From Spirochaetota bacterium (GTDB lineage: Bacteria; Spirochaetota; UBA6919; CBDBPB01), in assembly GCA_965208615.1 (NCBI GenBank), contig CBDBPB010000007.1, positions 128,001 through 192,000 on the forward strand: a stretch of 64,000 nucleotides of DNA. Direction: 5' to 3'. Of the stretch, positions 12,937-36,794 are shown one piece after another. Below the pieces are notes generated by a model. It had not been told where the DNA came from. It saw only the letters and a list, made by a program, of their open reading frames with translations, and made no database searches. A program made the translations under genes and the position numbers. Position 1 is the stretch's first letter, and the number at the start of each line of letters is the position of its first letter.

Positions 12937-12962
12937 GTTATATCCTTTAATGAATAAAATTT

Positions 12963-13532: not shown

Positions 13533-13550
13533 AATTCCCTCTTTTTATAT

Positions 13551-16136: not shown

Positions 16137-16154
16137 AAGGCTATGCCGATCTAA

Positions 16155-17057
16155 CTAAATGGATATGTTTATCTTAGCTAAAGTATTCAACTTTTTAGCC
16201 CTCAATAAGGATTTTTTAAGTTTATCAGCCTTTTCATCGAGATCAAGTTTTTGTTTAATCTCCTCAAAAGACTGCTTTAGCATGTTGGAGTCTATATCTT
16301 TCTTTTTACTTTTGTCTAGCTTTAACTCATCCACTAAATTATTATGTTCCCTAATGGCTATAACCCTTTGGGATGCCAATTGTAATTCATTACTAAGGCT
16401 AATCTGCTTATCCTTTAAGGCATTAAGCCTTTCTTTGCGTAACTCTTCAATATCCTTTGCCTCAATAAAGGTCTTTTTGTCCTTGTCATATTTAGGCTTT
16501 AATAATTTATCATCAGGATTAATATCAACCCATTTCTGATCAGTAAAATATATGTCGGATAAGTCTATATCCTTAGTCGTTACAAATCCATCATTGTCCA
16601 AAACCGTAACCTTTTTATTAGCCTCTTCCCATTCGCTCTTCGTTTTATTCCATTTTGCTAACTTTAAATCCTTATTAGGCTCTTTAAAAGGCAGATCAGG
16701 CACCTTATCAAAGCATCCACCCTCATTAAGGTCATTTAAGAAGTATCCGTCTTTGTCGATCTTATAAGACGGCTCAGGGATATAATAAGCCTGATCCCAA
16801 TGGCCTTCTATCGCCATATAGTTGTCCCATATCCATCTGTCAACCTTATTAGCCATTCGCCAATCAAGACTTTTTAGTTTAGACTCATATTCGTCACTAT
16901 GCTCAAAAGGGGAATTGTTAAGCTTAGGCTCAAGTTCTGTAGCATCAGACGGCACCTGAGGATCGTTAGAGTTAGGTAATGGCAAAGCCTTACTAGAGTG
17001 TTTATATACCCCATTTTCAGCATCAAAAAAGTATATCGTTGTGTTAGACATATTCAT
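16155..17057 (-). CDS. Putative tail fibre assembly chaperone
   Basis: Follows the collar fibre; IYFFDAENGVY...P.DATELEP and W....W motifs are typical of Tfa-like proteins. Confidence 0.6.
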   Translation of the reverse strand: MNMSNTTIYFFDAENGVYKHSSKALPLPNSNDPQVPSDATELEPKLNNSPFEHSDEYESKLKSLDWRMANKVDRWIWDNYMAIEGHWDQAYYIPEPSYKIDKDGYFLNDLNEGGCFDKVPDLPFKEPNKDLKLAKWNKTKSEWEEANKKVTVLDNDGFVTTKDIDLSDIYFTDQKWVDINPDDKLLKPKYDKDKKTFIEAKDIEELRKERLNALKDKQISLSNELQLASQRVIAIREHNNLVDELKLDKSKKKDIDSNMLKQSFEEIKQKLDLDEKADKLKKSLLRAKKLNTLAKINISI

Positions 17058-17067
17058 ATCAATCTCC

Positions 17068-18507
17068 TTAACCTAATTTAATAAAACAATTAAAAGCAAT
17101 ATTCTTCATACGAGTCTCAGACGCAGTACGAACAGTGCCATAGGTTGATGAGTAGGTTACTGCGTTGCCAAGATTGGCTTTGCCTGACCTTGTGTTAAGA
17201 TTAAAAACCCTAAAAGCCGTTCGAGATCGACGTGTTGCAGTATACCCACCCCCTGTTTGCCATCTCCAGCCAGTAAGTTCATAATCACCTTTACTATGGT
17301 TTATAACCTCATGCCTATGCCCAGGGTCATGATGCTTATGTCCTTGAAGGGCGTCGTCTTGTCTTGAGCCTAATTCTCTTCTTGAATCAGGACCAGTACT
17401 TTCCGTATTAGTAAACCTTATACCATATCCCCTTGTGTCTGGTAAACGAAACTGAGTACTATTAGAGCCAAACTTAGTACCTATTCTATCGTAAGTTTTA
17501 CGATAGGTTGACTTTGAAACAGGCTGGCCATGACATGGAACAAAGGTTGGATCAGGGTGGCTTACGTCAAAAGTCATTATAATATCACCTGGCCTAAAAG
17601 CTGACGTATCCTTGTGTAGTTTGTCAAAGGTGATAGTGTTGTCAGCTATCTTGCTTTCTGTAATGGCACTATTGTTTATCTTACTCGTTGTGATGGCATT
17701 ATTGTCTATTTTATCCGTTGTGATAGCATCACTAGCTACCTTATACGTTGTGATGGCATCATTAGCTATCTTATTCGTTGTGATGGCATCATTAGCTACC
17801 TTAGCCCTTGTGATGGCATCATTAGCTATCTTATTCGTTGTGATGGCATTATCAAGTATCTTAGGCGTTGTGATAGCACCATTAGCTATCTTATCTGTTG
17901 TGATGGAATTATTAAGGATCTTACTTGCTATAACAGTTTTGTCTGCTATCTCATAAACGCCTTTTTTTAGCGTTGACTTTTGTCTGTTGATTTCTATTTC
18001 TTTATAAGTCCCGTCTGATATGGCTATCTTCCCGCATAAAACTCCATATTCACTTTTATGCTTGTGATCATTAGTACCTTCAACAAGGTTTATTTCAGCA
18101 GCAAAACTGCTATACTCATGCTTTTTAGTAAAAGGGTCTTCTTGTATTTCAGTAGTCTTTACGTCCTCAACAGCTTTTAGGTATGCGTAATAATCCCCAT
18201 CACTTTTGCCGTCTATGCTGAACTCTTTATCTTCTTTTAAGTCAGCGTAGTTACCATTGTGATAAAATCCGTTAGGACAGCTTGTTATTTTTATTTTATC
18301 GGTACTTACGGTTTCTATTAATCCGTCATCAGTACCAAGGGGAGTGCAAAAGCCATCGGTCATATACTTTTCTACATTTTTTTTAATACGACCACTAAGC
18401 TCATCCATAGTGTTAGTCCAGTCGGTATCGAAAAACTTAATAGGCTTATCCAGCTCTCCAAGTTTTAGATATCCCATTTTTGTATCTCCCATGTTTGTAT
18501 CTCCCAT
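17068..18507 (-). CDS. Tail fibre A with phage tail-collar domain
   Basis: Shared N-terminus; 10-aa repeats; PGDIIM...FVPCHGQPVSKSTY...IGTKFG...FRLPDTRG collar motif; ETRMKNIAFN end. Confidence 0.8.
   Translation of the reverse strand: MGDTNMGDTKMGYLKLGELDKPIKFFDTDWTNTMDELSGRIKKNVEKYMTDGFCTPLGTDDGLIETVSTDKIKITSCPNGFYHNGNYADLKEDKEFSIDGKSDGDYYAYLKAVEDVKTTEIQEDPFTKKHEYSSFAAEINLVEGTNDHKHKSEYGVLCGKIAISDGTYKEIEINRQKSTLKKGVYEIADKTVIASKILNNSITTDKIANGAITTPKILDNAITTNKIANDAITRAKVANDAITTNKIANDAITTYKVASDAITTDKIDNNAITTSKINNSAITESKIADNTITFDKLHKDTSAFRPGDIIMTFDVSHPDPTFVPCHGQPVSKSTYRKTYDRIGTKFGSNSTQFRLPDTRGYGIRFTNTESTGPDSRRELGSRQDDALQGHKHHDPGHRHEVINHSKGDYELTGWRWQTGGGYTATRRSRTAFRVFNLNTRSGKANLGNAVTYSSTYGTVRTASETRMKNIAFNCFIKLG
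17625..17950 (-). repeat. 30-bp tandem repeats (AITTxKIAND)
   Basis: ttgtgatggcatcattagcta units, same family as in fibre C. Confidence 0.9.
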
Positions 18508-18543
18508 TTTTGTCTCCTTACTTTTTGCTGCAGATTAAACAAT

Positions 18544-19440
18544 CTAGGACCTAATAGCCACTCCGTAAAGTTCATCTCCATTTTCTACGTCTCTTTGTAT
18601 TTCCCAGTTTTCGCCGTCAGAGGAACTAAGTATAGTCTCTTTATCCCCCACAGCTATGAACTTATTATTTGCATAGGCAACTTTGTATAACCGTTTATCA
18701 GTGAAGTTTTTGTTATTATCCTTATCTATTATTTTAGTCCAATCTTTGTCGTCATTAGATGAGCTAAGGATAGTGCCACTCTTTCCCACAGCTATGAACT
18801 TATTATTACCGTATGAAACTCCCTCTAAGTCTTTATCAGTGAAGTTTTTGTTATTATCCTTTTCATTCACTATTTTAGTCCAGCTTTCGCCGTTATTAGA
18901 TGAGCTAAGGATAGTGCCATCCGCTCCCACAGCTATGAACTTATTATTACCGTATGAAACTCCCTCTAACTGATTAGTAGTTTCACTTGTTTGTTTAGTC
19001 CAAGTTTTTTCATTATCAGAGGAGCTAAGGATAGTGCCACTCTTTCCCACAGCTATAAACTTATTATTACCGTATGCAACTCCATATAAGTACTTCTCAG
19101 TGAACTTTTTGTTATCCTTATCTAGTATTTTAGTCCATATTTTTTCATTATCAGAGGAGCTAAGGATCCTACCCCAGTCTCCCACAGCTATGAACTTATT
19201 ATTTCCATAGGCAACTTCATTTAAGTAATTAGTAGTTCCACTTGTTTGTTCAGTCCAGCTTTCGCCGTCAGAGGAGCTAAGGATAGTGCCACCCGCTCCC
19301 ACAGCTATGAACTTATTATTACCGTATGCAACTTCATGTAAGGCTTTATCAGTAAAGTTTTTGTTACCATCATCTTTATTTACTATTTTAGTCCAATCTT
19401 TGCCATCATTAGAGCCAAGGATAGAACCACTTTTTCCCAC
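18544..19440 (-). CDS. Beta-propeller repeat protein, probably the C-terminal part of the upstream tail-protein-I-like gene
   Basis: ~7 blades of the same repeat as fibre B; frame stays open upstream to the TAA at 19594-19596. Confidence 0.7.
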   Translation of the reverse strand: MGKSGSILGSNDGKDWTKIVNKDDGNKNFTDKALHEVAYGNNKFIAVGAGGTILSSSDGESWTEQTSGTTNYLNEVAYGNNKFIAVGDWGRILSSSDNEKIWTKILDKDNKKFTEKYLYGVAYGNNKFIAVGKSGTILSSSDNEKTWTKQTSETTNQLEGVSYGNNKFIAVGADGTILSSSNNGESWTKIVNEKDNNKNFTDKDLEGVSYGNNKFIAVGKSGTILSSSNDDKDWTKIIDKDNNKNFTDKRLYKVAYANNKFIAVGDKETILSSSDGENWEIQRDVENGDELYGVAIRS

Positions 19441-19593
19441 AACTATATAGTTTATTTCAGTAATAGATTCAATATAGTACTCATATCCAGGGACTCTTTT
19501 CTTTAATATAGATTTAAGCTCATCTATAGATTTAAGTTCCTTATTAGTAGACGGGTTGGGTTTAGATTTAAGTTTATATTCATGTGAATCTTT

Positions 19594-20344
19594 TTAGTTT
19601 TCTTTATTCCGTTTACGTTCTAATTGGTTGTACTTAAGTTTATAGTGGTCCAATATCTTTTTTATAGCCTTTTTACCTGTATAAGGCATGAGGTAAACAC
19701 CTTGATAAGGCTCAACAATATCATCAAGGGTTCTTTTAATGAGGTCTATATTTATACCAGGCATATTGAAGAAGCGTATATAAGCTCTGGACCAAGTTCT
19801 CTTATGTGAGGTAATAAAGCTAAGTTTTTCGCTTTTGTCTTCGTCACTATTTTCGCTTTTGTTTTTAAGAATTCTAATGGTAAGATCGTGTTCATCATCA
19901 ATTGAATTTATATTTAAGTTTTTACTATAAAACTCTAAAAACTTTTTAATAGCCTCTCTTGGTATACCAGGGCTATTAGCACTATTAATCATTATCTCCT
20001 TGATTTTCTCTATATGTTTTCTAAAGTCACTATCTGATTCTTCTTTAACCTCTTTATTTTTAACCTCATCCTTACGACTAACTCCGTATAACTGGCCTAT
20101 AAGGTCTAAAAACCTTTTCTCAGCAGTATTCAAAAATAGTTGTTTGGCAAGGTAGTTTATCTTTTTTAGTGAGCGATCCTTAATTAGAATATCAAATATG
20201 GTATTATGGAACTTATAGATATTCGATTTCTTAGTAAGGCTGGTTATAGTAGGGGGGACAGTTACTCCAAACGTCTTTGTCAAAAGTTATATCCACCTCT
20301 GGAGCTGTTTTCTCAGTATCATCTGAATTAGCTGGATTACTCAT
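19594..20344 (-). CDS. Baseplate wedge / tail protein I-like (P2 gpI, Mu gp48 position); apparent frameshift near 20240
   Basis: LFLNTAEKRFLDLIGQLYGVSR...ESDSDFR motif; ATG 20344 overlaps the baseplate J stop and reads MSNP...DVWSNCPPYYN in another frame. Confidence 0.65.
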
Positions 20345-21670
20345 CTTGGAACCTCATTAAAATCTTCAAACTTTAACTTAGGCCAACCTTTATCTTTATA
20401 ATAATCTATTATAATATTAGGCTTAGGATCAATAATCCCTTTATTAATATCAATATCCTTCCAAGGCTGACCAGTATCGCTATCATTATTAGGAATCTTT
20501 ATGGAACCAGTCTTAATATTAAAAACATTAGGAGCGTTTATAATAAAGCTTTCCATTTTTTCTTTAACAAAGACATCTCCTGGATTAAACTTATTAAAAT
20601 ATTGATCAAGTGCATCTTTAATATCTTTTTCAAGGGGTTTAGTTTTTCTATAGTATATAGTAAGTTCAATTTTAATTGGTTGTACTTCAGCAAGACTTAC
20701 AAAAGCTCTCCAGTTAGCTAATGGCTTATGCTCTTTAGCATTAATCTTATTTTCGATATCTTTAGGATTAATACTAGCATTACTAGAGTCCTTATATCCT
20801 CTTACAATAATCCCAACAGAACCTTCACCATGCATTCGTGGTACAATCTTTGCTTCTTTTACTAATTCTTGTGATTCAGCTTTAGCTTTAAACCATCCAA
20901 TAGATCCCTCTACTGAACCGCTAGCACTATGTATGATTCTTTGTCTAAAATCGTCATCGCTTTCTTTGTCTATACCTCCTCCGATAATGCTTTTATTTCT
21001 TACATAATCAAAATGTTGAACAGCGGTTGATATTTCTGTTATCATTGCCCCATTTATACTTATCCCCGCCTTTTAAGGCTATTACAGGCACTTCTACACG
21101 ATATACCTTTTTATCATCGTCATCAATGGTATTATCCTCATAAGGCTTGGTTTCTTCATTAATTTCAACATCATTTAGTGTTTTAAACTTCAAAGGCTCA
21201 TTGTTAATAGTACTTTTAGCAGCCACAATATTACCTTTCTTAAATGTATAAGTGATTTTAGGCTTAGTGGTAGCACCAACATACACCTTTCCAACGGCAT
21301 TAGTTAGGATTTTACGCTCTATACTATATCTTTGTGCATGTAGGTCAAGCCATTCGTCTTCAGCGGTCTGTACAAGCATTTGTTTTTTAAGCTCTTCAAT
21401 ACCCTTATCTAAGACTTCATACTGCATGAGGGCGAATATCTTTAACACTCTCATTATTTTACCTTGTGGTCTTAAGTTAGAGATACTTTTATCATCACTT
21501 TCATTATCAGGTTTAACAACATTATTATAAAAACGAGTAATTAAGTCCTCTAACAAGTCGTTAAACTCGGGTTCTTTTTCGATTATACTATCTAACAACA
21601 AGTTATAATCGCTTCGTGATAACTTCTTATCTTCGATAAGCTTTACTATTTCTTTTACACTTTCATTCAT
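20341..21670 (-). CDS. Baseplate J/gp47-like protein, split by a 1-nt frameshift near 21055
   Basis: QTAEDEWLDLHA in the first ORF; GGIDKESDDDFRQRI and PRMHGEGSV in the second; removing one A joins them (YNGAMITE). Confidence 0.8.
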
Positions 21671-22080
21671 TAATATTCCTCCAAAGCATTATTAATAATA
21701 TTGACTTTCAAAGTGCTAATGTTAATCCTGTCATCCATGCTAAGCCAATTTTCTATATTTTGTTTAAGCTCAATAGCGGTTCCTTTAGTATAAGTCCGAT
21801 TTTTAAACTTCCAAATATCATTACCCTCTTGGACGTCGATAATATCATCGAAATATTTAAGTCTAAATCCCTCTATTAAGTCCTGTTCCAGAGCCTTTTT
21901 TCCATCAGCTATCTGCCAATCGTTTGTATATTCATTCGGAGCTATCACAAAGCTCCAGTCTTCTGGAATCTTTCTACTATATTTGTCAGCCTCAGTATAG
22001 CATAGAATGTCATTATCTAGGTTATCATCAACAACGTCGAATGATAACTCAATTTTATAATCTCCAATATTAAACTCCAT
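21670..22080 (-). CDS. Baseplate wedge / sheath initiator (gp25/gp46-like)
   Basis: Between spike and baseplate J; ADGKKALEQDL...DDRI pattern. Confidence 0.55.
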   Translation of the reverse strand: MEFNIGDYKIELSFDVVDDNLDNDILCYTEADKYSRKIPEDWSFVIAPNEYTNDWQIADGKKALEQDLIEGFRLKYFDDIIDVQEGNDIWKFKNRTYTKGTAIELKQNIENWLSMDDRINISTLKVNIINNALEEY

Positions 22081-22089
22081 ATAATTCTC

Positions 22090-22734
22090 CTACTCTAAAA
22101 CAACTTTTTTAGATTCAACTTCATTAGAAGTGACAAAAATAGGTTTCTCAGGGATCTTTACAGCACCATTCCCAATAAAAAAATGAGAATGACTATTAAA
22201 CTCCTTGACAATTTTATCAATAATCTTTTTAAGAGGTCCAGCAAGAACAGCCTTCTCACTGTCACCAGCAAGTTTAATCTTGTCTGCCTCTAGGACAATG
22301 TTATCCTTAGCCTTAATGTTAATATCCTTTTCTTTTGCGGTAATGGCTATTCCATCTTTTTTTGCCGTTATATTTACGGTTTTTTCAGCGAGGATAATAT
22401 ACTCCTCCACCTCTGAAAACTGTATAACAGCCCAGTCATTCTCTTCTTCAGATTCAAAATGAAGGGGTATAACGCTTACCATGGAGTCTTTTTTAGGGAT
22501 AACCAATATACCGCTTTTATTAATGGGAGTTAATTTAGCCTCTACTATCGGAGCCGATTGATCCTCTGGGTCAACATCACATACGTATATGCCTTTGTCA
22601 TCATCTTTTTTAACAGACTTAACAATTCCCCTCTTTCCACCTTTTTGATGGATTACCACATTAACTAAGTCCGTAAAAACATCTGTAAAACTACGATTAC
22701 CTGTCATGGAATAACCTCTATTATGAAAAGCCAT
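22090..22734 (-). CDS. Baseplate spike (gpV/gp45-like)
   Basis: OB-fold-like N-terminus (PKKDSMVSV), short beta-helix repeats, C-terminal HSH iron-binding motif. Confidence 0.75.
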   Translation of the reverse strand: MAFHNRGYSMTGNRSFTDVFTDLVNVVIHQKGGKRGIVKSVKKDDDKGIYVCDVDPEDQSAPIVEAKLTPINKSGILVIPKKDSMVSVIPLHFESEEENDWAVIQFSEVEEYIILAEKTVNITAKKDGIAITAKEKDINIKAKDNIVLEADKIKLAGDSEKAVLAGPLKKIIDKIVKEFNSHSHFFIGNGAVKIPEKPIFVTSNEVESKKVVLE

Positions 22735-22741
22735 AGTGATT

Positions 22742-22825
22742 TATATAAAAGCTAATGTAGAAACCTGATAAGGCAAGTACACTTATGCTATATATGCTAT
22801 ATATGCTACCTTTCTAAAAAAGTGA
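22742..22825 (-). promoter_or_regulatory. Late promoter with 9-bp direct repeats, upstream of the spike operon
   Basis: Minus strand: (TAGCATATA)x~3, then TTGCCT-N16-TAGCTT. Confidence 0.6.
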
Positions 22826-22977
22826 TAAAAATCTATGATATTTTAAAAGGCTAATAGTCTTTTCAGCAAAATAACACTGTCTTTTTTGTACAAAAGCTAA
22901 AATGTGATAAGTTAAAACAATAGGTTAAAAGAGAGATTAACAGCAGTATAGGGTTAAAATCAAAGGCTAAAACCTCA

Positions 22978-24834
22978 TCAGCTTTCAGTTCTAATTTGTC
23001 GAGCATCTCTTCTAATTTGTTCAACATCTCTTCTAATACTTTCTTCGAGACAATTCTTAGCATCCCACCCCTCGTATGAGCCTATCCAGTTGGGGTTTTG
23101 CTTATATGCATTAATATTATGTAGATTATTAAAAAGTTGCCAACCCCATTCAATAGCTCTACCAGAATGGGGATTCATGCCATAATAAGGCTTATTTTCA
23201 CATTCATCATGAGCAGCATAATTAAAAATAGCCTTGACTAACGCTATATCTATACCGCCGGATAGTTGGAATGCAGCAGCCAATAATATAGTCTTCCTCA
23301 AATCTAAGGTTATACCTAAGGTTTCCCCACGTGTAGCCATATGCATACCAAAGAAAAAGTTTCCTAACTCTTTGACTGTCATATAATAGTTATAACAATG
23401 AACGCCGTTAAAGTGTTTACCAGAGCCTCCGCCGTATTCTTTTAAATTTTTAAAGTCATAGATTTGGTTAGTTCGAGAATTCATGATTGTTGTAACTATA
23501 TTATCACTAACTGCAGGACTAAGAAAACCGCTTATCTTATCGCTATAATCGTATATTTTTATAGTGCCTTTTGTATTACTTTCCCTATCCATAAAGGAGT
23601 CCCAAAATATAGTTTCACCTATATACATACCCGTATGATCATATACTTCATTAGAACCCTCATTCACAGCTATAACCTTACGATCCTTATCAATATAGGT
23701 GCCAGGTTTAGAGGTATCAACCTTTTTATTTTGTTCATCTTTTTTATCTTGCTCATCTTTTTTATCTTGGTCATCTTTTTTAGGCTGTGCTGGCTTTTTA
23801 TTTTGTGTTGCCTTAGTTAGGGCACTAGGTTTTTTAGGTATATAGCCGGATTTTTTACCTACTATAACCTCAGTACCTGGTTTTGGGAAATAATGGTTAA
23901 CTCCGTCTAGGGGTACGTTATAGCTATCTTCATCGAGTTTTTGATTTAGTAAGTCAGAGCCCTTTTGTTTTAGGATAACCTCGGATAATAAGTTAATTGT
24001 TGGATCTAGTCCTGTTTTAACGGATCCCACTAAACCTGATGAGCTTAGGTTTTTATATATTTTATTGGCAAGAAGAGGTAGTTCATTTTTGCTTAATCCT
24101 GGTTCAAAGTAGTTATAAGCGTTTTTACCGCTACCTTTTTTAGCAATATTGACTTTTCTTTTTTCATCTTTGCCAATGACGGATACTTCTAAATCCGATA
24201 TACCCTTATCCATCTTAAGATCGTTTGTATTGGTGGATAGGTCTATATTATTGGAACTTATAATTTGTCCCTTTTTCCCATACTTTTTAATACTAGGTTT
24301 TATAAAGCTGTACTTATTGCCGTAATAAAGTTGTTTGCCTATTAGAAACCATTCTCCAAAGGCTTTAGTGGCCAACCTATTTATTATATACCTAACTGAT
24401 CTGTTTGTAAAGGATAATACCTTATACTTATTTATCTTTTTCACATTGGAGGTAATAATACTAACGCCTTTAACCTCGGATATTATATTTTTAATAATTT
24501 CGTCATCACTCATATCCTTAAAGGTTTTGGTAATTTTGTTTTGAGCAAATTTATAACTATAGTCCTCGCATTCTATACGTATAGAGTCTTGGAGAATATT
24601 AACATCCGTAATTACTCCCTCAAAGACCTCTTCAATGTTATTGTTATGTCCAAGGGATACTATAATAGTATTTTCTTTTTCATAGGGATAGCTATCCCTT
24701 CCGCCTTTTTTAAAGAGTTCCACAACGCAGCTATTAGGACGGTTAAGCCTTGTATTTTGAACATGTAGAGATTTTATAATATCTTGTTCAACGCTGTTAT
24801 TAGCGATTTTTATTTTTGCTTTAAAGACTAACAT
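22978..24834 (-). CDS. Baseplate hub (gpD/gp44/VgrG-like) with C-terminal Ntox44-like toxin domain
   Basis: IIVSLG...VFEGVIT...IECED hub motif; low-complexity linker; ELGNFFFG...AAAFQ...AIEWGWQLF at the C-terminus. Confidence 0.7.
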   Translation of the reverse strand: MLVFKAKIKIANNSVEQDIIKSLHVQNTRLNRPNSCVVELFKKGGRDSYPYEKENTIIVSLGHNNNIEEVFEGVITDVNILQDSIRIECEDYSYKFAQNKITKTFKDMSDDEIIKNIISEVKGVSIITSNVKKINKYKVLSFTNRSVRYIINRLATKAFGEWFLIGKQLYYGNKYSFIKPSIKKYGKKGQIISSNNIDLSTNTNDLKMDKGISDLEVSVIGKDEKRKVNIAKKGSGKNAYNYFEPGLSKNELPLLANKIYKNLSSSGLVGSVKTGLDPTINLLSEVILKQKGSDLLNQKLDEDSYNVPLDGVNHYFPKPGTEVIVGKKSGYIPKKPSALTKATQNKKPAQPKKDDQDKKDEQDKKDEQNKKVDTSKPGTYIDKDRKVIAVNEGSNEVYDHTGMYIGETIFWDSFMDRESNTKGTIKIYDYSDKISGFLSPAVSDNIVTTIMNSRTNQIYDFKNLKEYGGGSGKHFNGVHCYNYYMTVKELGNFFFGMHMATRGETLGITLDLRKTILLAAAFQLSGGIDIALVKAIFNYAAHDECENKPYYGMNPHSGRAIEWGWQLFNNLHNINAYKQNPNWIGSYEGWDAKNCLEESIRRDVEQIRRDARQIRTES

Positions 24835-24837
24835 TTT

Positions 24838-25842
24838 TTATATCTCTTTGTTTTTAGCAAGGGCGGGTAGTGTTATTATAATGCCCTCGATTAGTTTAAT
24901 GTAATTATTTGCTTTTCTAATTTTTTTAGCATGTCTTGTGTCATTATAATATGCGTTAGCTATGCTAAAATATGTATCGCCTTTTTTTACAACATATTCC
25001 TTGTCTTTCTTGGGGATTATTGGTATTTTAGCGGTTTTACCTGTATTACCAAGATCTTTAGCCTTTTTCATATCACCGTCTTGTATGGCCTTAAGGATTT
25101 TTTTTAATTCTGTTACCTTATTTTCTTCTAGTCCGAGTGTGTCTTTTGCAAATCCTAGAATTTCAGTAACGCCTTCAAAGCCTTTAACAGCCTTATTAAC
25201 GTATTTATTAAGTTCATCAACTTCTTCTTTGCTAGATGTTTTTCCTTGTAGGATAGAGAGTAATGGATGAGCTCCCATATCTTTATTAATTTTTAAGAAC
25301 TCTTTTTCTAAAGTATGATCTCCGAATACGTCAGCGGCTATTTTTGCAAAGTCATCGCCTTTTTTCAGTATCAGTTTTGAATATTTATTAGCTTTTTTTA
25401 TGCCGTTTATTACTTTTACAATTCCACCTATGGATTCGCTTAGGAATGAGGGAGTACTAGTCTTAGATTTATCTTCCACACACTCGATTCTCATGTCTCT
25501 TGCCGAGTCTATCCCCTCTACGGTGGATATATAATGATTTTCTATAATAACTTTTTTAATATCGTGATTTTCGGTTTCTATTGATACCATAGATAAAGAC
25601 TCTAGTTTTTTAGCCAGATCCCTTATCAATTTAATTTGTTTATTTAGGGATAGGTTATCTGTAGATATAAGACGTCCTGTAATGGTAACTTTAAAGTCGT
25701 TCCATCCTGTTTGACGTTTTACACCATTTTGAGTAGTTATTATTTTACCTCCGCCATGAACCTTAACATCGCATGGACAGGGGATGTCTACTCCACCAAG
25801 CTTAACTTTATTTTGAGGATCTATTTTATAATATTTACCCAT
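24838..25842 (-). CDS. Tail tube initiator-like protein with two LysM domains
   Basis: LKKGDDFAKIA and YVVKKGDTYFSIANAYY...IRKAN; RBS AAGGA before ATG 25842. Confidence 0.75.
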   Translation of the reverse strand: MGKYYKIDPQNKVKLGGVDIPCPCDVKVHGGGKIITTQNGVKRQTGWNDFKVTITGRLISTDNLSLNKQIKLIRDLAKKLESLSMVSIETENHDIKKVIIENHYISTVEGIDSARDMRIECVEDKSKTSTPSFLSESIGGIVKVINGIKKANKYSKLILKKGDDFAKIAADVFGDHTLEKEFLKINKDMGAHPLLSILQGKTSSKEEVDELNKYVNKAVKGFEGVTEILGFAKDTLGLEENKVTELKKILKAIQDGDMKKAKDLGNTGKTAKIPIIPKKDKEYVVKKGDTYFSIANAYYNDTRHAKKIRKANNYIKLIEGIIITLPALAKNKEI

Positions 25843-25881
25843 GGTGTTTTTCCTTTTATTTTGCAGGATTTGATGATAATA

Positions 25882-25961
25882 CATAAAAGCTAATGTAGAA
25901 AATTGATAAGACAAGCACACTTATGCTATATATGCTATATATGCTACCTTTCAGAAAAAGT
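25882..25961 (-). promoter_or_regulatory. Late promoter with 9-bp direct repeats, near copy of 22742-22825
   Basis: ataaaagctaatgtagaaa..tgataag.caag.acacttatgctatatatgctatatatgctacctttc is shared. Confidence 0.6.
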
Positions 25962-26070
25962 ACGAGTTTTTTTTTTAAGAAGATAATCTTCAAAATGACA
26001 AAATTTATCATTTTCGATTTTATAGTCTAAATGCGGTTCAGTTGATATATTGTAGGGGGGGGGGGGAGGG

Positions 26071-26949
26071 TTATTTTTTTAGTAGTTTTGTTTTATAGCG
26101 GTGAAATTTTATTAATGCTTTTTTTGAGTTTTGTTTCCAAAGTTTTAAATATTCGATCCATGTATAATGGGATTCGATTTCTGACAAAGTGGATCTGTTA
26201 TTTTCTTGAGCCTCCTTATTGAATATTGTATATAGCGATTTAACTCTATAGTATTCCTTAGGGTTTAACTCTTTAGATAGCATATCGTTAGGGATGATTT
26301 TTGATAATTTCCTGCCGTGATATTCGAATATAATTTTATAATAATCTGTTTCAGAAAGCATAGTAATTTTATCATCGAGAGCATCTATTAACATGTATCG
26401 GTAATCTGGATAAGTGATAAGATCATCCCATATTTTTCTATACTGAGTAGCAAGCTTTTTTGAGTGGGGTAGCATTTTATTTATTGTAGACTTATCAACA
26501 CTAATTTCTAGATTCTTTTCTAGTTTATGAGTAATACCAGCACCTAAGGGAGTAGTAAGACGGCCCCTAGTCCGCTCTAAATCTATGTTGCTTATTTTTG
26601 GCGTCTTAGATAACTCAGTAAGCTCATCTACACTTTCTATTATAGTACTAAAAGAGCTATAATATGATTTAAATGCTTTAGAGTTAAGAGATATTTTTTC
26701 CCCTTTAACTTTGCTTAAGCTATGGAGATAGTTATTAAACATATCACTCATAGCTACACCATAGTGAATATTAATAAGGTTGTTTTTAAGTTCATAAGCC
26801 AACAACTTTTCATTCATATAGCTATCAAAAATATTTTTATTTAACATAGCTATTATATCTTTATTTCCTTTGTAAGTCAGGTTGTATAAGATAGTTATAA
26901 CGCTTAATGCTAAAACAATTAGGAAGATAATGGATCGTTTTTTTTTCAT
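26071..26949 (-). CDS. Membrane-anchored paralogue of the unknown core domain
   Basis: N-terminal TM; HYGVAMSDMFNNYL, YRKIW and YYRVKSLY motifs shared with neighbours. Confidence 0.6.
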   Translation of the reverse strand: MKKKRSIIFLIVLALSVITILYNLTYKGNKDIIAMLNKNIFDSYMNEKLLAYELKNNLINIHYGVAMSDMFNNYLHSLSKVKGEKISLNSKAFKSYYSSFSTIIESVDELTELSKTPKISNIDLERTRGRLTTPLGAGITHKLEKNLEISVDKSTINKMLPHSKKLATQYRKIWDDLITYPDYRYMLIDALDDKITMLSETDYYKIIFEYHGRKLSKIIPNDMLSKELNPKEYYRVKSLYTIFNKEAQENNRSTLSEIESHYTWIEYLKLWKQNSKKALIKFHRYKTKLLKK

Positions 26950-27022
26950 TATGAACCCTCCAAAAAGTTATGCTGTAAAGTTAGCCCGTAAGGATAGGGG
27001 ATATCAACATTCACCTGCGATA

Positions 27023-27056
27023 AAAGTTAATATATAAAAATGTAGAGTCAAGGCTT
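27023..27056 (-). promoter_or_regulatory. Sigma70-like promoter, shared with 29641-29670
   Basis: TTGACT-CTACATTTTTATATAT-TAACTT on the minus strand. Confidence 0.5.
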
Positions 27057-27090
27057 ATTCTAGTTTTCAGGAAGGGTTAAGAAGTTTTTT

Positions 27091-28791
27091 TTATACATAC
27101 AATAGTTCTTTACTAAAACTACTATTAGGTATATAATCGTTATTGTTCTGGTTACGGATTTGATATGCCTGTTGATAAATCTCACTAATCCCCTCTTCAT
27201 TATTTGGGAAATGCTTAGCGAAGTTGTTAAGATCATTCTCAGTCAATCTATTACCATTATTATAAAAAGGCCTTATATCCTTTTTAATCTGCTTGGGTAG
27301 GCTGTCAGATAAAATCTTCTCTATATTAATTTTATTACTAGCCTTACTAAGAACAGCATTTATAATTCCGCCTTTGTTGGAGGCGTTATTAATCATGCCT
27401 CCAAGGTGGAGAAGCTTTCTCTCGCCGTTATTACCACTATGGCTAGTAGGATTAACTTTAACATTACTCCCTTTCAAAGAACTGATTCTATTATTCTTTC
27501 TCTTATCATAGCTATTTATATAACTATTTACTTCCTTTTCTATATCTTTATATTTATCTTCGATAATGTTATTATAGTAAGTCAATGAAAGTGATTTTGT
27601 ATCTAAAGCATTAGCCGCATATAGAATATCAGCTGTAGAAGCCCCTGTTTTAACTTCCAAATCGCCTAATGTATTTCTATACTCTATTTTTTCACTTAAA
27701 TAATCATAAAGATAATTATCATAGAGCTCTGCATATTTTTTTTTGTTAAGCTTTTTGACTGAATACTTTGGTACCTTTGCCTTTCTAAACTTATTAGCTA
27801 TATTTTTTATGACATCTGTCTCTTTAAATGTTTTTAATAATTTATTTCTATAACAGAAGAAGTCCATCATTTTATCTTGAGAAAACTTGGTAAAAATCCT
27901 AATTAACTTGCACATTCTCAAGCTATTACCAAAAAGCATTGAAGCTGTTGTAGCACGTCCGATAGATATCCTTGCCCTTGCTTTTCTATCAAGTATCATA
28001 TATAACGATCTAGCAAGATAGTATTTATCAAGATTTAAATTAGGCTTAAAATAAGGCTTAGGCAAATTTAGCCTATCATAAAGCCCTCCTTCTGCATCAT
28101 CAAGGTCATCATAATTATATTTTGTAAGAATCTCTTGCCATAACCTTCTATAAGCCTTTACAGTAAGCAATGACTCGCTAATGGCAGACTTATGTATTTT
28201 AATAGGGATATTAATATAATAACCTTTCTCATCCATATTTGATTTTAGTAAAGAATCAATGGAATAACCATACCCTTGAGCTTTTAAGTAATTATTAATA
28301 GCTTTACTAATAAGTGCATGTGCCCCAAAGTTAGTATCAGTACCAAAATCTTTATAATCTAAGTAATTTATCTGAGCTTTTGTCTTATCTAAACTATTAG
28401 AATATTTCTTAAATATCTTGACGTTAAACCTTTTTTCTTTTACTGAGTCATCATCACTTTCTATAGTCTCTAGATTAAGCAAATATTTATGAAACATATC
28501 ACTAATAAACATACCATAGTGGGTACCCATTATAGGAGTTCGTTTCCCCTTATCGAGTGCTTTAGTATGTTCATATATAGCGCCTATTGTTACTCCAATA
28601 AGAGCTGCATAAGGATTTGGAATTCTAGAAGTTGCTGCACTAGTTGCTAATGCTACTGCAATACTATCATAATCTACTCCTGCTTCATTTTTATCTTTAA
28701 GGATAGTACTTTTATTAATTGCCTCATTCTTAATTGCCTTCTTTAATAGATTCATATGGTGATAATTTTTTAAGATACTACTGTTACCCAT
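27091..28791 (-). CDS. Tape-measure-position protein, paralogue 2 (putative cargo/effector)
   Basis: Shares SILKNYHH N-terminus, hydrophobic hairpin, core domain and LTE.....GIS...YQ.AY C-terminus with 29699-31357. Confidence 0.55.
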   Translation of the reverse strand: MGNSSILKNYHHMNLLKKAIKNEAINKSTILKDKNEAGVDYDSIAVALATSAATSRIPNPYAALIGVTIGAIYEHTKALDKGKRTPIMGTHYGMFISDMFHKYLLNLETIESDDDSVKEKRFNVKIFKKYSNSLDKTKAQINYLDYKDFGTDTNFGAHALISKAINNYLKAQGYGYSIDSLLKSNMDEKGYYINIPIKIHKSAISESLLTVKAYRRLWQEILTKYNYDDLDDAEGGLYDRLNLPKPYFKPNLNLDKYYLARSLYMILDRKARARISIGRATTASMLFGNSLRMCKLIRIFTKFSQDKMMDFFCYRNKLLKTFKETDVIKNIANKFRKAKVPKYSVKKLNKKKYAELYDNYLYDYLSEKIEYRNTLGDLEVKTGASTADILYAANALDTKSLSLTYYNNIIEDKYKDIEKEVNSYINSYDKRKNNRISSLKGSNVKVNPTSHSGNNGERKLLHLGGMINNASNKGGIINAVLSKASNKINIEKILSDSLPKQIKKDIRPFYNNGNRLTENDLNNFAKHFPNNEEGISEIYQQAYQIRNQNNNDYIPNSSFSKELLYV

Positions 28792-28855
28792 AGTTATTAC
28801 CTCATATTTTTATTTTTGCCTTATAGGCTAATACTTTATCTTAATATAAAAAGTT

Positions 28856-29494
28856 CTATTTTATATTAGTCCTTTTTTCAAGAGAAAAAAGGTCTGTCTT
28901 GTCCTTAAGCTTGTATTCTTCATCATCAAGCTCATCATATTTATGCTTTTTAAGGCTTCTCCACAGCTTTATATAAGCCTTTACAGTAAGCAATGACTCG
29001 CTAATGGCATAATTATGTATTTCAATAGGAATATTAATATAATAACCTTTCTCATCCCACATATTTAATGTTAGTAAATAACCAATGGAATAACCATACC
29101 CTTGAGCTTTTAAGTAACTATCAATAGCTATATTAATAAGTGCATGTGCCCTAAAGTTAGTATCAGTACCAAAATCTTTATAATCTAAGTAATTTATCTG
29201 AGCTTTTGTCTTATCTAAACTATTAGAATATTTCTTAAATATCTTGACGTTAAACCTTTTTTCTTTTACTGAGTCATCATCACTTTCTATAGTCTCTAGA
29301 CTAAGCAAATATTTATGAAACTTATAGCTCTCTATCATACCATAGTAAGCACCATGATAAGCAATCTTTTTATATTCCTTTTCCTCATTGATTAGTGGAA
29401 GATTTATTATTATAACTCCAACAACCACTAAAAGAGTCACTAACCACTTATATCTAACCAAAAAACTCTTTAAACCATTAACTTGCTTTATCAT
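28856..29494 (-). CDS. Membrane-anchored partial copy of the 27091-28791 core domain
   Basis: ~345 bp nearly identical to 28150-28495; N-terminal TM; RBS AGGGAG. Confidence 0.65.
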   Translation of the reverse strand: MIKQVNGLKSFLVRYKWLVTLLVVVGVIIINLPLINEEKEYKKIAYHGAYYGMIESYKFHKYLLSLETIESDDDSVKEKRFNVKIFKKYSNSLDKTKAQINYLDYKDFGTDTNFRAHALINIAIDSYLKAQGYGYSIGYLLTLNMWDEKGYYINIPIEIHNYAISESLLTVKAYIKLWRSLKKHKYDELDDEEYKLKDKTDLFSLEKRTNIK

Positions 29495-29640
29495 GTATGC
29501 TCCCTATACCAATAAGTCGCTTTTAAAGTGGCAAGGCGACGAGTCGCTTTAAAGGGTGACTGATCACTAAGCTACGTAGCCAGCTACTCTAATGTGACCT
29601 GGCTGTGTGTACACCTTGTGGGTATCATCAAGCCGTCTAT

Positions 29641-29695
29641 AAAATTAATATATAAAAATGTAGAGTCAAGCCTGGTTATGCTATATATGCTACTT
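29641..29695 (-). promoter_or_regulatory. Promoter with two 9-bp repeats
   Basis: TAGCATATATAGCATAA upstream of TTGACT-N16-TAATTT. Confidence 0.5.
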
Positions 29696-29698
29696 TTC

Positions 29699-31357
29699 TT
29701 ACGCTGTATGAGCTAATACTTCTTTAACATTATGTCCCTGAGGAACACTAGAATTAGTTATTTCGTTATAGGCCTGATACAGCAGTTGAGAAATCCCATT
29801 AAGCTTATCTTTATTATCTGGATGACATCTAACTAGCTGGTTAATATTATCCTCAGTCAATATATTATCATTATTTTCAGTATTAGCATGAGAGTCATTA
29901 CTAAAAAGATTTTCCAAGTTATCATTATAGCTAGCTTTGACTACTCTTTCAGTGTTGGCTACTCCTACAGCATTTCTGAGTACCGGATTAAGAGATTTTC
30001 TCCTAAGAGATCTTTTCCTAATAAGATTTGCCAACTTGTTATAGTTATATGCCAAGTTCTTATAATTAGCGGTATTAGCTACTCCAGCTATCTTGTCATT
30101 CTTAGAACCAATTCCTTTAGTGTTGTTAGTATATTCCACATTTGTCTTTGTAAATAGATTACTAATTCTGTTATGATTATCATTTACAAAAAGTCTACTC
30201 TCATCGTTATCAAATGCGGCAGCAAGTATGTCAGAATGACTAACTCCTGTTTCTTTTATTAGGCTATTTATATTTAGGTTATATAAAGAAGCGTACATCT
30301 CTCTAGATTTCACATCACTAGTTAGGTACGGATCTGTAGCATATCTGTATTGTTTTTTTATATGTCTAAGAAAGTTCGCGTATTTACTCTGTAATATTCC
30401 TTTTCTATATCGGTAGAATTCTTCCATTGCAGCTTGACCACTAAACCTATCCCATTCACGCCCTTCTGCTGCTCTTGAGTTAATCTTTAAAATTGTTGGA
30501 TAACTAATATAATGATTAATTGCCTTAGCTTCAGCTTGCTTATCAAGTACCATATATAGTGATCTAGCAGCATAATATTCATTAAGATCAAGGTCAGTAT
30601 CTGGAGTATAAGGTATATTCGTGCCTATCTTAGCATCAAGTAATAGTCCTAATAAACCTAAGTTATTTTTATTATTAGTAATGGAGCTCCACATATTTCT
30701 ATAACCAGTAGCAAAGTTTTTTGACTTACCCTTAACTTTTTTATATATAGCAAAAGGAATAGTAAAAGATTCCTTGTCTTTTAGTACAGTATCAATTGTT
30801 ACTGAATTATTAGAACTATTTCCCAAGTACTCATTAATTATGTCCACAATAGCTCCAGAACTTCCGAATACAGACCCAAGTCCATGTTTACCAATTAGAT
30901 TTTTAGGAATATTACTTACGGCATCTTGTATAGGAGTCCAAGACTTCATATATGAATCAAATGTTTTACTATTAATAACAACTGGCTTATTTTTAGTACC
31001 AATTGATTCTAAGTAATTATCAAACAGCTCACTAATAACCATACCATGATGAGCACCTAATACACTGTAGCTTTTTTTAGTTCGTATATTACGATAGATA
31101 GCTAAACTGCTCAGTAATAACCCAATGATTGTTCCAACCGCGGCTGGTGGAACAGAACTAATACCAGCAATTAATATTGTTAATAAAATATTATTAATCA
31201 GTTTCCTCTGATCTTCATTCTTTTCACTTTTAAAAATACTTTTAACATTTTTATCCTTTTTAATTGCTCTATCTAATAGGTTTTCATGGTGATAGTTTTT
31301 TAGAATACTGGGGGCATTATTCTTAGAAAGATTAGCTATACTACTTGTTTTTCCCAT
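29699..31357 (-). CDS. Tape-measure-position protein, paralogue 1
   Basis: Directly downstream of the G/GT chaperone; 552 aa; hydrophobic segment near the N-terminus. Confidence 0.55.
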   Translation of the reverse strand: MGKTSSIANLSKNNAPSILKNYHHENLLDRAIKKDKNVKSIFKSEKNEDQRKLINNILLTILIAGISSVPPAAVGTIIGLLLSSLAIYRNIRTKKSYSVLGAHHGMVISELFDNYLESIGTKNKPVVINSKTFDSYMKSWTPIQDAVSNIPKNLIGKHGLGSVFGSSGAIVDIINEYLGNSSNNSVTIDTVLKDKESFTIPFAIYKKVKGKSKNFATGYRNMWSSITNNKNNLGLLGLLLDAKIGTNIPYTPDTDLDLNEYYAARSLYMVLDKQAEAKAINHYISYPTILKINSRAAEGREWDRFSGQAAMEEFYRYRKGILQSKYANFLRHIKKQYRYATDPYLTSDVKSREMYASLYNLNINSLIKETGVSHSDILAAAFDNDESRLFVNDNHNRISNLFTKTNVEYTNNTKGIGSKNDKIAGVANTANYKNLAYNYNKLANLIRKRSLRRKSLNPVLRNAVGVANTERVVKASYNDNLENLFSNDSHANTENNDNILTEDNINQLVRCHPDNKDKLNGISQLLYQAYNEITNSSVPQGHNVKEVLAHTA

Positions 31358-31987
31358 TATAAAATTCCTCTAAAAACTTGATATCAGCTATAAGTTTGTA
31401 ATAGTCATCCGATAGCGGTAGGATGGTGGATTCGCTAATATTTTTATTAGGGAACCACCTACCGGCAAGCAAGTATACAGAAGGGTCATATCCCACTTCT
31501 ATAGAGCCAAGTTTTATATACTTACCTTTATTGAGTTCTGTTACCCGCTTGTCTATTAATTCTTTCCCGCTTCGGCTATTCCAACCCCCTCTTTGGTTAG
31601 GAGTATATTACCCAAACTGAGCAGGAAGGTTGCTGGGACTTCGTGATTATCAAAACTTATATCATTAATTAGTTTTAAAGTTCCGCCCTCACTGTTACCA
31701 GCAGCCATGAGCCTACAGATTTGTATATTTTGATCTAACCCATCCTTTGACGGTTTATTAATCACTCTCATAAGCCTTTTAACATCGGCTGAGTGGAATA
31801 TTCCACTAAATTCAAAGTCGGGTTCATGCACTAAATATACCCGTTTATTTTTTTTAATGACAATATCAATCTCAACCTTATGATTGTTAAATGCTTTAAC
31901 ATCCTCGTTATTGTCCAAGAAGTCTTTTGGATCAACTCCGTCTTTAATTTTATCTCTGTGTCTGTGCAAGCTAATGCAGTATATCAT
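31341..31987 (-). CDS. Tail assembly chaperone G (31556-31987) and GT fusion via programmed -1 frameshift
   Basis: G GGA AAG slippery site at 31562-31568 just before the stop; -1 frame open for ~73 codons to TAG at 31341. Confidence 0.8.
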
Positions 31988-32024
31988 ATTTTTATCCTTT
32001 AACGAGTTGGATTAGTCTTTTTAT

Positions 32025-32432
32025 TTATTTACTGGATATTTTAACATCACCGAGTACAGTAAAGTCAATACTAGTTTTGTCATCAGCTGTTTTACCAAGA
32101 TTATATCCGTCATTGCTAAAGCGAGCTTGTTTTATCTCGACTTTTCTACCTTGATCGTCTGTAGCAGTGATATCACAAATTAGATCAGACAGTGTACCGT
32201 CAGTTGATCCTAGTTCTTCAGCAATAATAAGTTTTTCACTTTGTTCTAAAGATATTTTACCCTTATTACTTTCCACAGCACTCGCAGTACTAACCACTTT
32301 ACCATTTCTAAAAGTGTTAGCCTCTTTTAGAGTTTTTGTCCACTCAAGACTTTCGATAGTTACAGTCTGTTTTCCGTTTATGAGTACATCGGTTTTATCT
32401 AAATCAAACTTTTTATATATTTGTTCAGCCAT
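32025..32432 (-). CDS. Tail tube protein
   Basis: 135 aa, beta-rich, directly after the sheath; RBS AGGAGG. Confidence 0.7.
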   Translation of the reverse strand: MAEQIYKKFDLDKTDVLINGKQTVTIESLEWTKTLKEANTFRNGKVVSTASAVESNKGKISLEQSEKLIIAEELGSTDGTLSDLICDITATDDQGRKVEIKQARFSNDGYNLGKTADDKTSIDFTVLGDVKISSK

Positions 32433-32443
32433 AATTCACCTCC

Positions 32444-33616: not shown

Positions 33617-33738
33617 ACTTACCTCCTTTTGTTGAGTCATAATTAAACTTTAGATTTCTTTTCATTTTTCCTCCTGTCCACAAAATGGACTATCTATTAT
33701 TATTTTTTTAAAACGAACATTATCTGTTTTAAAACCTT

Positions 33739-34411: not shown

Positions 34412-34487
34412 AGTTAATACCTAAACTCTATTAGGCAAGGACAGTTATGCTATATATGCTATTTGTGCTACCTATCTGAAAAAAGTT
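34412..34487 (-). promoter_or_regulatory. Late promoter with 9-bp repeats for the sheath/tube operon
   Basis: TAGCACAAA-TAGCATATA-TAGCATAA, then TTGCCT-N16-TAACTT. Confidence 0.6.
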
Positions 34488-35301: not shown

Positions 35302-35338
35302 CCCGCTTGACAGTGCTATACCTCAAAAGGAGAGAAAT

Positions 35339-35659: not shown

Positions 35660-35696
35660 CCCGTTTAGCAGTGCTATACCTCAAAAGGAGAGAAAT

Positions 35697-35963: not shown

Positions 35964-36000
35964 CCCGCTTAGCAGTGCTATACCTCAAAAGGAGAGAAAT

Positions 36001-36366: not shown

Positions 36367-36403
36367 CCCGCTTAGCAGTGCTATACCTCAAAAGGAGAGA
36401 AAT

Positions 36404-36757: not shown

Positions 36758-36794
36758 CCCGCTTGACAGTGCTATACCTCAAAAGGAGAGAAAT

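Follow-up and report, generated by a model that had tools for sequence, protein, structure and literature searches.

We analyzed a 64,000-nucleotide stretch of DNA from a Spirochaetota bacterium (contig CBDBPB010000007.1 of assembly GCA_965208615.1, positions 128,001 to 192,000), hereafter the window, and within it one gene of a contractile-tail cluster, an open reading frame (ORF) of 618 residues that begins with ATG and lies on the minus strand. Its product comprises a baseplate hub, a low-complexity linker, a C-terminal module related to the toxin ends of Rhs and CdiA proteins, and a helical tail (Table 1). The gene had been pointed out in an earlier reading of the DNA made from the letters only, which placed the ORF correctly and left its strand unstated; the strings quoted in that sequence-only reading were all located in the protein when their coordinates were re-checked, with LLAAAFQ and GRAIEWGWQLF falling within residues about 515-568. 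The motif YYGM, which is considered below, occupies residues 550-553. In the one run that holds the stretch, the Logan assembly is letter-identical to the window over the whole gene (range in Table 1), and as that assembly was made from the same reads, this should be taken as a check of the assembly and not of the biology. That run, kept as contigs, is the only sequencing run found to hold the stretch, and no RNA run holding it is listed.

The genes around the hub follow the order LysM/DUF6046 protein, hub, 214-aa spike, gp25-like, J-like and I-like proteins and fibres, with the DUF2586 sheath and the tube genes upstream. The same order surrounds the hub in one relative and in a second tail cluster of the same genome, which belongs to an apparently complete Mu-like prophage located 300 kb away on the same contig (G000:C7:435500-460000) and is referred to below as the sibling prophage.

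Table 1 Coordinates in the window of the fusion gene, its parts and its neighbours, with the evidence for each
Feature	Position	Strand	Evidence
Whole ORF, 618 aa: hub + linker + toxin-derived domain + helical tail	22978..24834	-	Logan contig identical over 22785-25000
Residues 1-335, gp27 / Mu gp44 / P2 gpD-type baseplate hub	23830..24834	-	phrog_4930, AlphaFold2 (AF2) model, Foldseek, plain-hub alignment
Residues 346-371, K/D/E/Q linker	23722..23799	-	18-nt tandem repeat (Tandem Repeats Finder, TRF)
Residues 377-575, Rhs/CdiA-type C-terminal toxin module, Ntox44-related	23110..23706	-	phmmer, family hidden Markov models (HMMs), AF2, Atlas
D460-F-K462, DxK motif	23449..23457	-	Invariant in 46/46 aligned sequences
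G491-N-F-F-F-G496, GNxxxG motif	23347..23364	-	G, N, G invariant
M553, replaces E of 44/45 other family members	23176..23178	-	Family alignment, hhalign
Residues 576-618, extra helical tail	22981..23109	-	Family alignment, AF2 model, TRF
Non-coding gap between hub and spike, 243 nt	22735..22977	-	Stops in all frames
Separate spike gene, 214 aa, gpV / gp45 / VgrG-tip-like	22090..22734	-	Weak DUF2345 + TssI/VgrG matches
Upstream gene, 360 aa, LysM + DUF6046 baseplate protein	24838..25920	-	Pfam, PHROGs
Contractile-tail cluster without head genes	11527..34389	-	Sheath, tube, LysM protein, hub, spike, gp25-like, J-like, I-like, fibres

The hub, its extension and the gap behind it

The first 335 residues are a hub of the gp27/Mu gp44/P2 gpD type by profile, fold and gene order. 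This agrees with the gpD/gp44 hub recognized before, whose end had been put at ~315 and is moved to about residue 335 by alignment with two plain hubs. The PHROGs profile phrog_4930 ('baseplate hub') matches residues 1-289 at E 1.9e-16 (profile positions 1-279 of 319). An AF2 model of residues 1-345, built from an alignment of 17 hub homologues, has a pLDDT of 79 and gave 63 Foldseek matches in the PDB at E<=0.001, the best of them being hubs of contractile injection systems (7b5h_AJ, 1.8e-19; 7aef_q, 1.8e-18). The model also matches VgrG structures (8gra_G, 6.2e-16; 4mtk_A, 3.2e-13), Mu gp44 (1wru, 1.6e-13, TMt 0.64), T4 gp27 (1k28_D, 7.7e-11), the pyocin R2 hub (6u5h_A, 4.5e-10) and the Mu baseplate (9ki1_G). 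None of the Pfam hub families matches the 618-aa protein; NCBIfam gave only the far sub-threshold orf58_phage_fam (31.9 bits, cut-off 170), a PDB sequence search with the protein only weak rows (7aef_q, E 0.068), and a word-index search with the whole protein no match, the low complexity of the linker probably swamping it.

The two plain hubs, of 326 aa (the sibling prophage of the same genome) and 347 aa (same order), are 39% and 33% identical to the fusion hub, align with it over residues 1 to ~335 and then end in a short K/R-rich tail, at the position where the fusion protein enters its linker. The linker, KKPAQPKKDDQDKKDEQDKKDEQNKK, is of low complexity, as had been noted, and is encoded by an 18-nt tandem repeat (TRF: 23723-23782, period 18, 3.3 copies, 92% matches). 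A second tandem repeat, of 21 nt and thus of heptad length, encodes the other end of the protein, IRRDVEQ/IRRDARQ (22989-23037, period 21, 2.3 copies); this end belongs to residues 576-618, which are absent from the other members of the toxin family and for which a long helix is predicted (positions 217-242 of the AF2 model). In a sample of 401 genomes of the phylum, a profile built from these three hubs found 18 hub places in 17 genomes, with open frames of 255-369 aa at all of them except the fusion hub (619). One further hub locus, of 347 aa, was found in metagenome contigs, and no hub relatives were found in viral contigs.

Where the hub is plain, its stop adjoins the spike gene or lies within it, the sibling prophage being a case of overlap, whereas 243 nt separate the fusion hub from its spike. 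This gap holds stops in all frames; a 66-aa ORF (22863..23063) that overlaps the end of the hub gene has no family match, one promoter-like site was seen against 1.6 expected, no terminator was found, and Rfam returned one sub-threshold row only for the region. Within the gap lies one copy of a 32-nt element based on direct repeats of TAGCATATA. The whole 2.46-Mb genome has three copies of the element, all on the minus strand of this cluster (22779-22810, 25917-25948 and 34441-34472), where they lie upstream of the spike gene, the LysM gene and the first tail gene. The sibling prophage lacks the element, which forms the core of an 82-nt repeat (22742-22823 / 25880-25961). It looks like a private promoter or operator, which would split the cluster into three units, one of them consisting of the LysM gene and the hub. 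As one of its copies is located there, the gap after the hub would carry a promoter-like element and not a decayed immunity gene.

The C-terminal module and its relatives

An exhaustive phmmer search of residues 385-618 against 1.84 billion representatives gave seven matches at E<=1e-3 (9.2e-6 to 9.5e-4). The top match, P0002, an Ig-repeat protein matched in six short stretches, was treated as a repeat artefact and was dropped from the alignments. The remaining six are aligned over the whole domain and at their C-terminal ends; one is a 1928-aa Rhs protein, and several of the matched fragments open with the end of an Rhs core (...NPxxxxDPxG). A search with the family profile found 43 proteins of 89-426 aa, named by their sources as RHS (9), as filamentous hemagglutinin (4) or as hypothetical, together with 11 proteins of 427-2000 aa. 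Eight of these 11 have RHS_repeat, TEN_YD-shell, DUF6443 or PT-VENN domains, and a source gives the name RHS to two of the remaining three. When species genomes were scanned with a pattern, 125 candidate stretches came up, of which 86 were confirmed, most of them from Bacteroidota, and 80 were kept as loci. In the phylum of the window, the family was found in four of the 401 genomes, this one included, elsewhere on Rhs-like ORFs.

The similarity was also examined from the side of the family. An HMM of 13 sequences recovers residues 377-403 and 402-568 at E 1.8e-17 and one of 45 family members recovers residues 395-575 at E 1.5e-23. When the genome was cut into 14,909 six-frame segments, these models matched none but the domain with E<=1. 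The window sequence was left out of both HMMs, which keeps the test from being circular, and by these models the similarity is far beyond chance. Homology begins at 'GTYIDKDRKVIAV', the point at which the C-terminal fragment of the Rhs and CdiA relatives starts after its DPxG or VENN boundary. One toxin domain is found at the extreme C-terminus of different carriers, namely Rhs proteins, CdiA proteins with PT-VENN and, here, a hub, and these homologues bear out the polymorphic-toxin C-terminus that had been proposed. We consider it very probable that the protein consists of a hub plus a toxin-derived module.

A tblastn search of the domain against 50,697 phage records gave no match. The family member P0009 gave a single match there, which proved to be no phage structural protein but a CdiA gene that ends a prophage-derived record. 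In this record, of Moraxella phage Mcat25 (KR093649.1, 1-4959), the terminal 'hypothetical protein' is a CdiA-type two-partner-secretion toxin of the same family (ESPR, TPS, DUF637 and PT-VENN, followed by the toxin module); as its neighbour is a JAB tail gene that looks truncated, the record probably extends into bacterial DNA at the flank.

An AF2 model of the module, with the family alignment as input, has a pLDDT of 78 and shows a small beta pre-domain and a mainly helical core. Fold searches with this model gave no matches at E<=0.001 in the PDB (Foldseek) or in BFVD, and among the 48,161 chains compared by VIA-align the highest Z was 4.1, so that no chain reached 5; a PDB sequence search with the family profile returned no rows. 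A lysozyme or structural fold, which the sequence-only reading had named as speaking against a toxin, was looked for in this way and no match at all appeared. These blanks should be taken as evidence neither for a new fold nor against any family.

The relation to Ntox44 is seen in the motifs. Across the 46 aligned sequences, the only invariant residues are the D and K of DxK and the two G and the N of GNxxxG, and the window domain keeps all five (D460-F-K462 and G491-N492-F-F-F-G496). The table of Zhang 2012 (PMC3482391) gives Ntox44 three signature motifs, and DxK and GNxxxG are two of them. The third, DxxxD, is not kept, with M553 standing at that column. When the family was compared by hhalign with three true Ntox44 proteins of the same phylum, P was 0.0024 and the probability only 12%, with GNxxxG, AGxxQ and YG[ED] aligned collinearly; the family's YYGE is paired with sGDdpaD of the Ntox44 profile, E standing opposite the D after G, and we read this D as the first of the DxxxD motif. 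PF15607 (Ntox44, gathering cut-off 24 bits) is found below threshold in 1/7 and 6/40 family members, with best scores of 22.3 and 20.1 bits. In an ESM-Atlas feature search with the window domain, 27 of the 30 nearest clusters are Ntox44 (top 0.94, with 209 of 256 features shared). By motifs and features, it holds that the toxin family is a distant relative of Ntox44 and not a Pfam member, so that the earlier Ntox44-like call stands as far as a distant relationship is meant and falls as a statement of Pfam membership.

Partner genes of the homologues and the site of action

A same-strand ORF of at least 60 aa follows the toxin gene at 76 of the 80 family loci (two of the four others run off the contig), and in 67 of the 76 cases it starts within 31 nt of the toxin stop. 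One blastp-linked family accounts for 62 of these 76 ORFs and the other 14 are singletons. In 53 of the 62, a strongly hydrophobic N-terminal segment follows a basic start, and a crude pattern picks up a lipobox-like cysteine in at least 15. These proteins of ~145 aa, exported or membrane-anchored and with no Pfam match at E<=0.001 among eight scanned, are a candidate for an unnamed immunity family. At all three in-phylum loci, a 158-aa ORF with an N-terminal membrane helix, unmatched by the family HMM, lies 15 nt downstream, and both of the true Ntox44 loci inspected have a downstream ORF that bears a transmembrane (TM) segment. One true Ntox44 protein of the same phylum (L007 829..2022, plus strand, 54.5 bits) has a LysM domain, and the ORF behind its gene bears a TM segment, which hints that classical Ntox44, too, may be wall-associated and not an RNase.

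For the complex of a toxin with its neighbour (membrane anchor removed), structure prediction gave a score of 0.84, as compared with 0.00 for the best of three controls. The mark for this score is reached by 58 of 80 solved complexes and by 2 of 110 mismatched pairs, counts that are only roughly valid here because custom alignments were used. The runs agree in at least 86% of contacts, the partner has a pLDDT of at least 89, and the predicted interface covers the DxK, GNxxxG and AGAYQ positions. In type VI secretion systems (T6SS) and contact-dependent inhibition (CDI), immunity proteins that carry a signal peptide or a lipoprotein anchor pair with toxins acting in the periplasm or at the membrane, and the immunity proteins of nucleases are cytoplasmic. 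Since the homologues have partners that are exported or anchored in the membrane and that, by prediction, cover the motif face, we infer that the target of the domain would lie in the cell envelope (wall or membrane) and would not be cytoplasmic RNA.

The sequence-only reading had followed the Pfam description of Ntox44 and proposed an RNase that is injected into the cytoplasm of the target. In the literature, Ntox44 is called a 'predicted RNase', a label repeated in later papers, and it stands among the nucleic-acid-targeting toxins in the table of Zhang 2012 (PMC3482391; the group heading lies outside the part of the table used). As no immunity family is listed for Ntox44 in the part of that source used here, its RNase label appears to rest on prediction. 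A further paper (PMC9635880), in a passage that cites Ma et al. 2017, places Ntox44 among 'characterized' nuclease domains, and the Lipocone paper (10.1101/2025.01.14.632903) does not mention Ntox44. Set against the label are the membrane anchors or lipoprotein signals of the partners at the family, in-phylum and true Ntox44 loci counted above, the LysM domain of the one true Ntox44 protein, the immunity family missing from the portion of Zhang 2012 consulted, and the lack of any nuclease fold among the matches of the C-terminal model. The RNase function is thus left unsupported by the topology of the homologues' partners, and we regard a cytoplasmic RNase as very unlikely.

Origin of the fusion and its place among known systems

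The cluster is flanked by thioredoxin-reductase-type, tRNA-synthetase and gyrB genes on one side and by trigger factor on the other, and is accompanied by an endolysin-like gene and by a gene for a helix-turn-helix (HTH) repressor-like protein. It holds a complete set of tail genes without head and packaging genes: terminase, portal and capsid families have no match among the ORFs of the window, and the only Terminase_6N and Portal_Mu matches of the genome are in the sibling prophage. The head genes of that prophage encode a terminase, a Portal_Mu-MuF fusion, a capsid-like protein, Gp36 and a morphogenesis protein, and none of its eight head-region ORFs matches the window. The fusion protein of 991 aa (Portal_Mu and Phage_Mu_F) continues for ~300 aa without a Pfam match, an extension of the kind described in work on polymorphic MuF toxins.

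The two clusters share sheath, tube and baseplate genes at 37-81% identity, with the hub (39%) and the LysM protein (37%) being the least conserved of the shared tail genes and the spike 52% identical. This kinship allows another explanation, in which the window cluster is a spare tail module whose tails join the heads of the sibling prophage and whose hub domain is an enzyme that opens the wall during infection. The sheath, the tube and a 143-aa protein, at 67-81% identity, would suit it, as would the repressor-like, endolysin-like and 170-aa genes common to both clusters (41-92% identity); wall-degrading domains are common on phage tail-tip proteins, and one Foldseek match of the hub, 9m7n_A, is titled 'bacteriophage NF5 tail-associated lysin'. 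Nonetheless, the genes that join head and tail, Gp36 and Phage_tail_S, belong only to the head module of the prophage and are unmatched in the window, the promoter-like element with its three copies is confined to the window cluster, and nothing points to wall-hydrolase chemistry. We consider this the least probable of the explanations weighed here.

Several other features of the cluster should be mentioned. The J-like gene consists of two overlapping ORFs on the minus strand (20341..21045 and 21008..21670; 220 and 234 aa) and is a single ORF in the sibling prophage (409 aa) and in the relative (405 aa). In the Logan contig of the run, a letter is missing at 21053 (depth 3.6), and both parts would then share one frame, so that the split may stem from a misassembled short run of A or from genuine variation, and it is weak evidence of decay. 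Where the sibling prophage has its head module, the window has five small ORFs of 106-132 aa (34981-37193, plus strand), two of which have weak apolipoprotein-like and phrog_9415 matches. The tape-measure region (26071-31357, minus strand) is rearranged: it contains ORFs of 552 and 566 aa that are 27% identical to each other, and a 212-aa ORF (28856..29494) that matches a part of the 566-aa ORF with 75% identity over 162 aa. None of the ORFs in this region has a family match, and its counterpart in the sibling prophage is a single 919-aa ORF without a match in the window. Among the fibres are BNR/DUF6242 beta-propeller proteins (13551..16136 and 18544..19440, minus strand), with several paralogues on contigs C1, C2 and C4, which may be receptor-binding or glycan-binding modules.

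The explanation that we favour as a whole, with a probability of roughly 0.55, is that the protein is the hub of a head-less Mu-like tail that captured an Rhs/CdiA toxin fragment. A Mu-like contractile tail would have lost its head module, and its hub would have captured a released C-terminal toxin fragment of an Rhs/CdiA-type polymorphic toxin, placed behind the normal K-rich end of the hub and a repeat-encoded flexible linker. By homology to the Mu, P2, pyocin and T4 baseplates, the hub would form a trimer at the tip of the tube together with the spike, so that contraction of the sheath, driving the hub through the outer membrane, would bring three copies of the domain into the periplasm of the target. 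There the domain would act, as its relatives appear to do. The producer would be spared without an immunity gene, since the protein would stay cytoplasmic until lysis. That the domain is an active envelope effector delivered by the tail is, taken separately, a proposition to which we give slightly less than even odds. The broadest form of the explanation, a domesticated Mu-like prophage weapon that delivers an immunity-less envelope enzyme with each shot, with a periplasmic Ntox44 superfamily as its corollary, is tentative, and the odds are rather against it.

This explanation has some weak points that need to be considered. The hub-toxin fusion is a single occurrence in one genome and one sequencing run. 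The swap of C-termini among homologous hubs that the sequence-only reading had suggested looking for was not found, the extension being absent at all 17 other hub places of the 401-genome sample, so that nothing indicates the exchange of cassettes by which polymorphic toxins are defined. The Pfam Ntox44 HMM, likewise proposed as a check, matches neither the protein nor its halves even at E<=10, no other Pfam family does so at that level, and PF15607 has no match in the whole genome at E<=0.001. The blank of the C-terminal model in the PDB gives no hint of chemistry. No homologue of the partner (immunity) family was found in the 243-nt gap or in the whole genome, the best E being 0.22 with filters off. 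The envelope site leans on the partner topology of homologues that are 25-33% identical, and it would be weakened if an Ntox44 domain were a proven nuclease, as the placement of Ntox44 among characterized nuclease domains implies. The cluster would be a tailocin-like element or a defective prophage.

The divergence of this copy should be added to these points. The other 45 members have 35 columns with a conservation of 80% or more, and the window domain differs at 13 of these, as compared with seven for the next most divergent members, a comparison in which the columns were defined without the query and which thus favours its appearing divergent. The substitutions include E553M (E in 44/45), R488K (43/45) and G520A (43/45), as well as L494F (45/45) and A495F (43/45), by which two positions inside GNxxxG have become F and F. 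By this alignment no other family member has diverged as far; should position 553 hold a catalytic acid in the family, this copy would be dead, and the loss of that acid is a real warning on activity, even though the five invariant residues are kept. The module could thus be a relic or an exapted part, captured once, that has lost catalysis and serves as a passive plug or as a binding or spacer domain at the tail tip, or serves nothing. Besides the changed columns, the missing immunity gene and the lack of related extended hubs would suit a relic, as would the composition, which is fully ameliorated (GC content 0.348, as compared with 0.331 for the window, with no compositional anomaly seen), so that the capture would not be recent. 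However, 243 extra codons have stayed open in a genome of 33% GC, the invariant residues are kept, the AF2 model is confident, and a tailocin-type producer would need no immunity in any case. A relic is an unlikely reading, one that nevertheless deserves more weight than a cytoplasmic RNase.

The favoured hub-toxin fusion has likenesses among known systems, among them the evolved VgrG proteins of T6SS, such as V. cholerae VgrG-3, with a wall-degrading end, and P. aeruginosa VgrG2b. There, too, a gp27-like module carries a C-terminal effector in three copies at the tip of a contractile machine. The effector of evolved VgrG proteins, however, follows a fused gp5-like spike, whereas here the spike is a separate gene, the effector comes directly after the hub domain, and the machine is a Mu-type phage tail. 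Enzyme domains are also known on the central puncturing device of phages, as in the lysozyme of T4 gp5 and in tail-associated lysins (PDB 1k28, 9m7n), and the window domain would likewise act in the periplasm. Those enzymes have lysozyme, peptidase or glucosaminidase folds, whereas no solved fold is matched by the window domain, whose relatives are toxins used between bacteria and come with immunity genes. The extracellular contractile injection systems (eCIS; AlgoCIS 7aef, Anabaena CIS 7b5h, PVC 6j0m, AFP 6rbk) provide the best fold matches of the hub and deliver protein toxins; their cargo is separately encoded and loaded into the particle. The window cluster differs from them in that no AAA family, and thus no AAA+ ATPase, occurs in the Pfam matches of the 22 proteins scanned (21 of the tail cluster and one flanking), and in that its nearest sequence relatives are Mu-like prophage genes.

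With the Rhs-CT and CdiA-CT toxins of the Ntox44 kind (PMC3482391, its motif table), the protein shares a homologous C-terminal module in which DxK and GNxxxG are kept. It differs in its carrier, which is the hub of a phage tail and neither an Rhs cage nor a CdiA filament, in having no DPxG or VENN boundary, immunity gene or alternative cassettes, in the M that replaces the acid of the third motif, and in scoring below the Pfam threshold. MuF toxins, as described in the part of Jamet et al. 2017 (PMC5576092) used here, are likewise fusions of a tailed-phage virion protein with a polymorphic-toxin C-terminus; these are head-internal, thought to be ejected with the DNA and mostly nucleases, in contrast to a baseplate hub of a head-less tail. 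R-type pyocins and other tailocins, from the sections of Ghequire et al. 2015 (PMC4684702) consulted, have in common with the window a head-less contractile cluster with a gpD-type hub, regulator-like and lysis-like genes and a chromosomal site between housekeeping genes. The known R-type particles are described as having plain hubs and killing by puncture alone, whereas here ~280 extra residues of toxin origin follow the hub.

Effectors on a gp27-like module, fusions of virion proteins with toxins and enzymes at the tail tip are thus principles already known from VgrG, MuF and T4 gp5. For a head-less tail whose Mu/P2-type hub bears a toxin module of the Rhs/CdiA type, no description was found in the full-text literature searched, and no second hub-toxin fusion was found in the sequence collections searched. 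Such a hub would bridge the puncture-only tailocins and the toxin-carrying T6SS spikes and eCIS, and would offer a natural template for loading cargo on tailocin hubs. The intact sibling prophage with its plain hub gives a rare side-by-side view of a tail losing its head. The exported partners of the homologues make the 'RNase' label of this Ntox44-related family testable; the label, copied into many surveys of T6SS effectors, is probably wrong at least for this branch. If the broadest form of the explanation is true, the fusion would be the phage-tail counterpart of evolved VgrG, and the widespread Ntox44 superfamily, borne by PAAR, Rhs and CdiA proteins and annotated 'RNase', would act in the periplasm.

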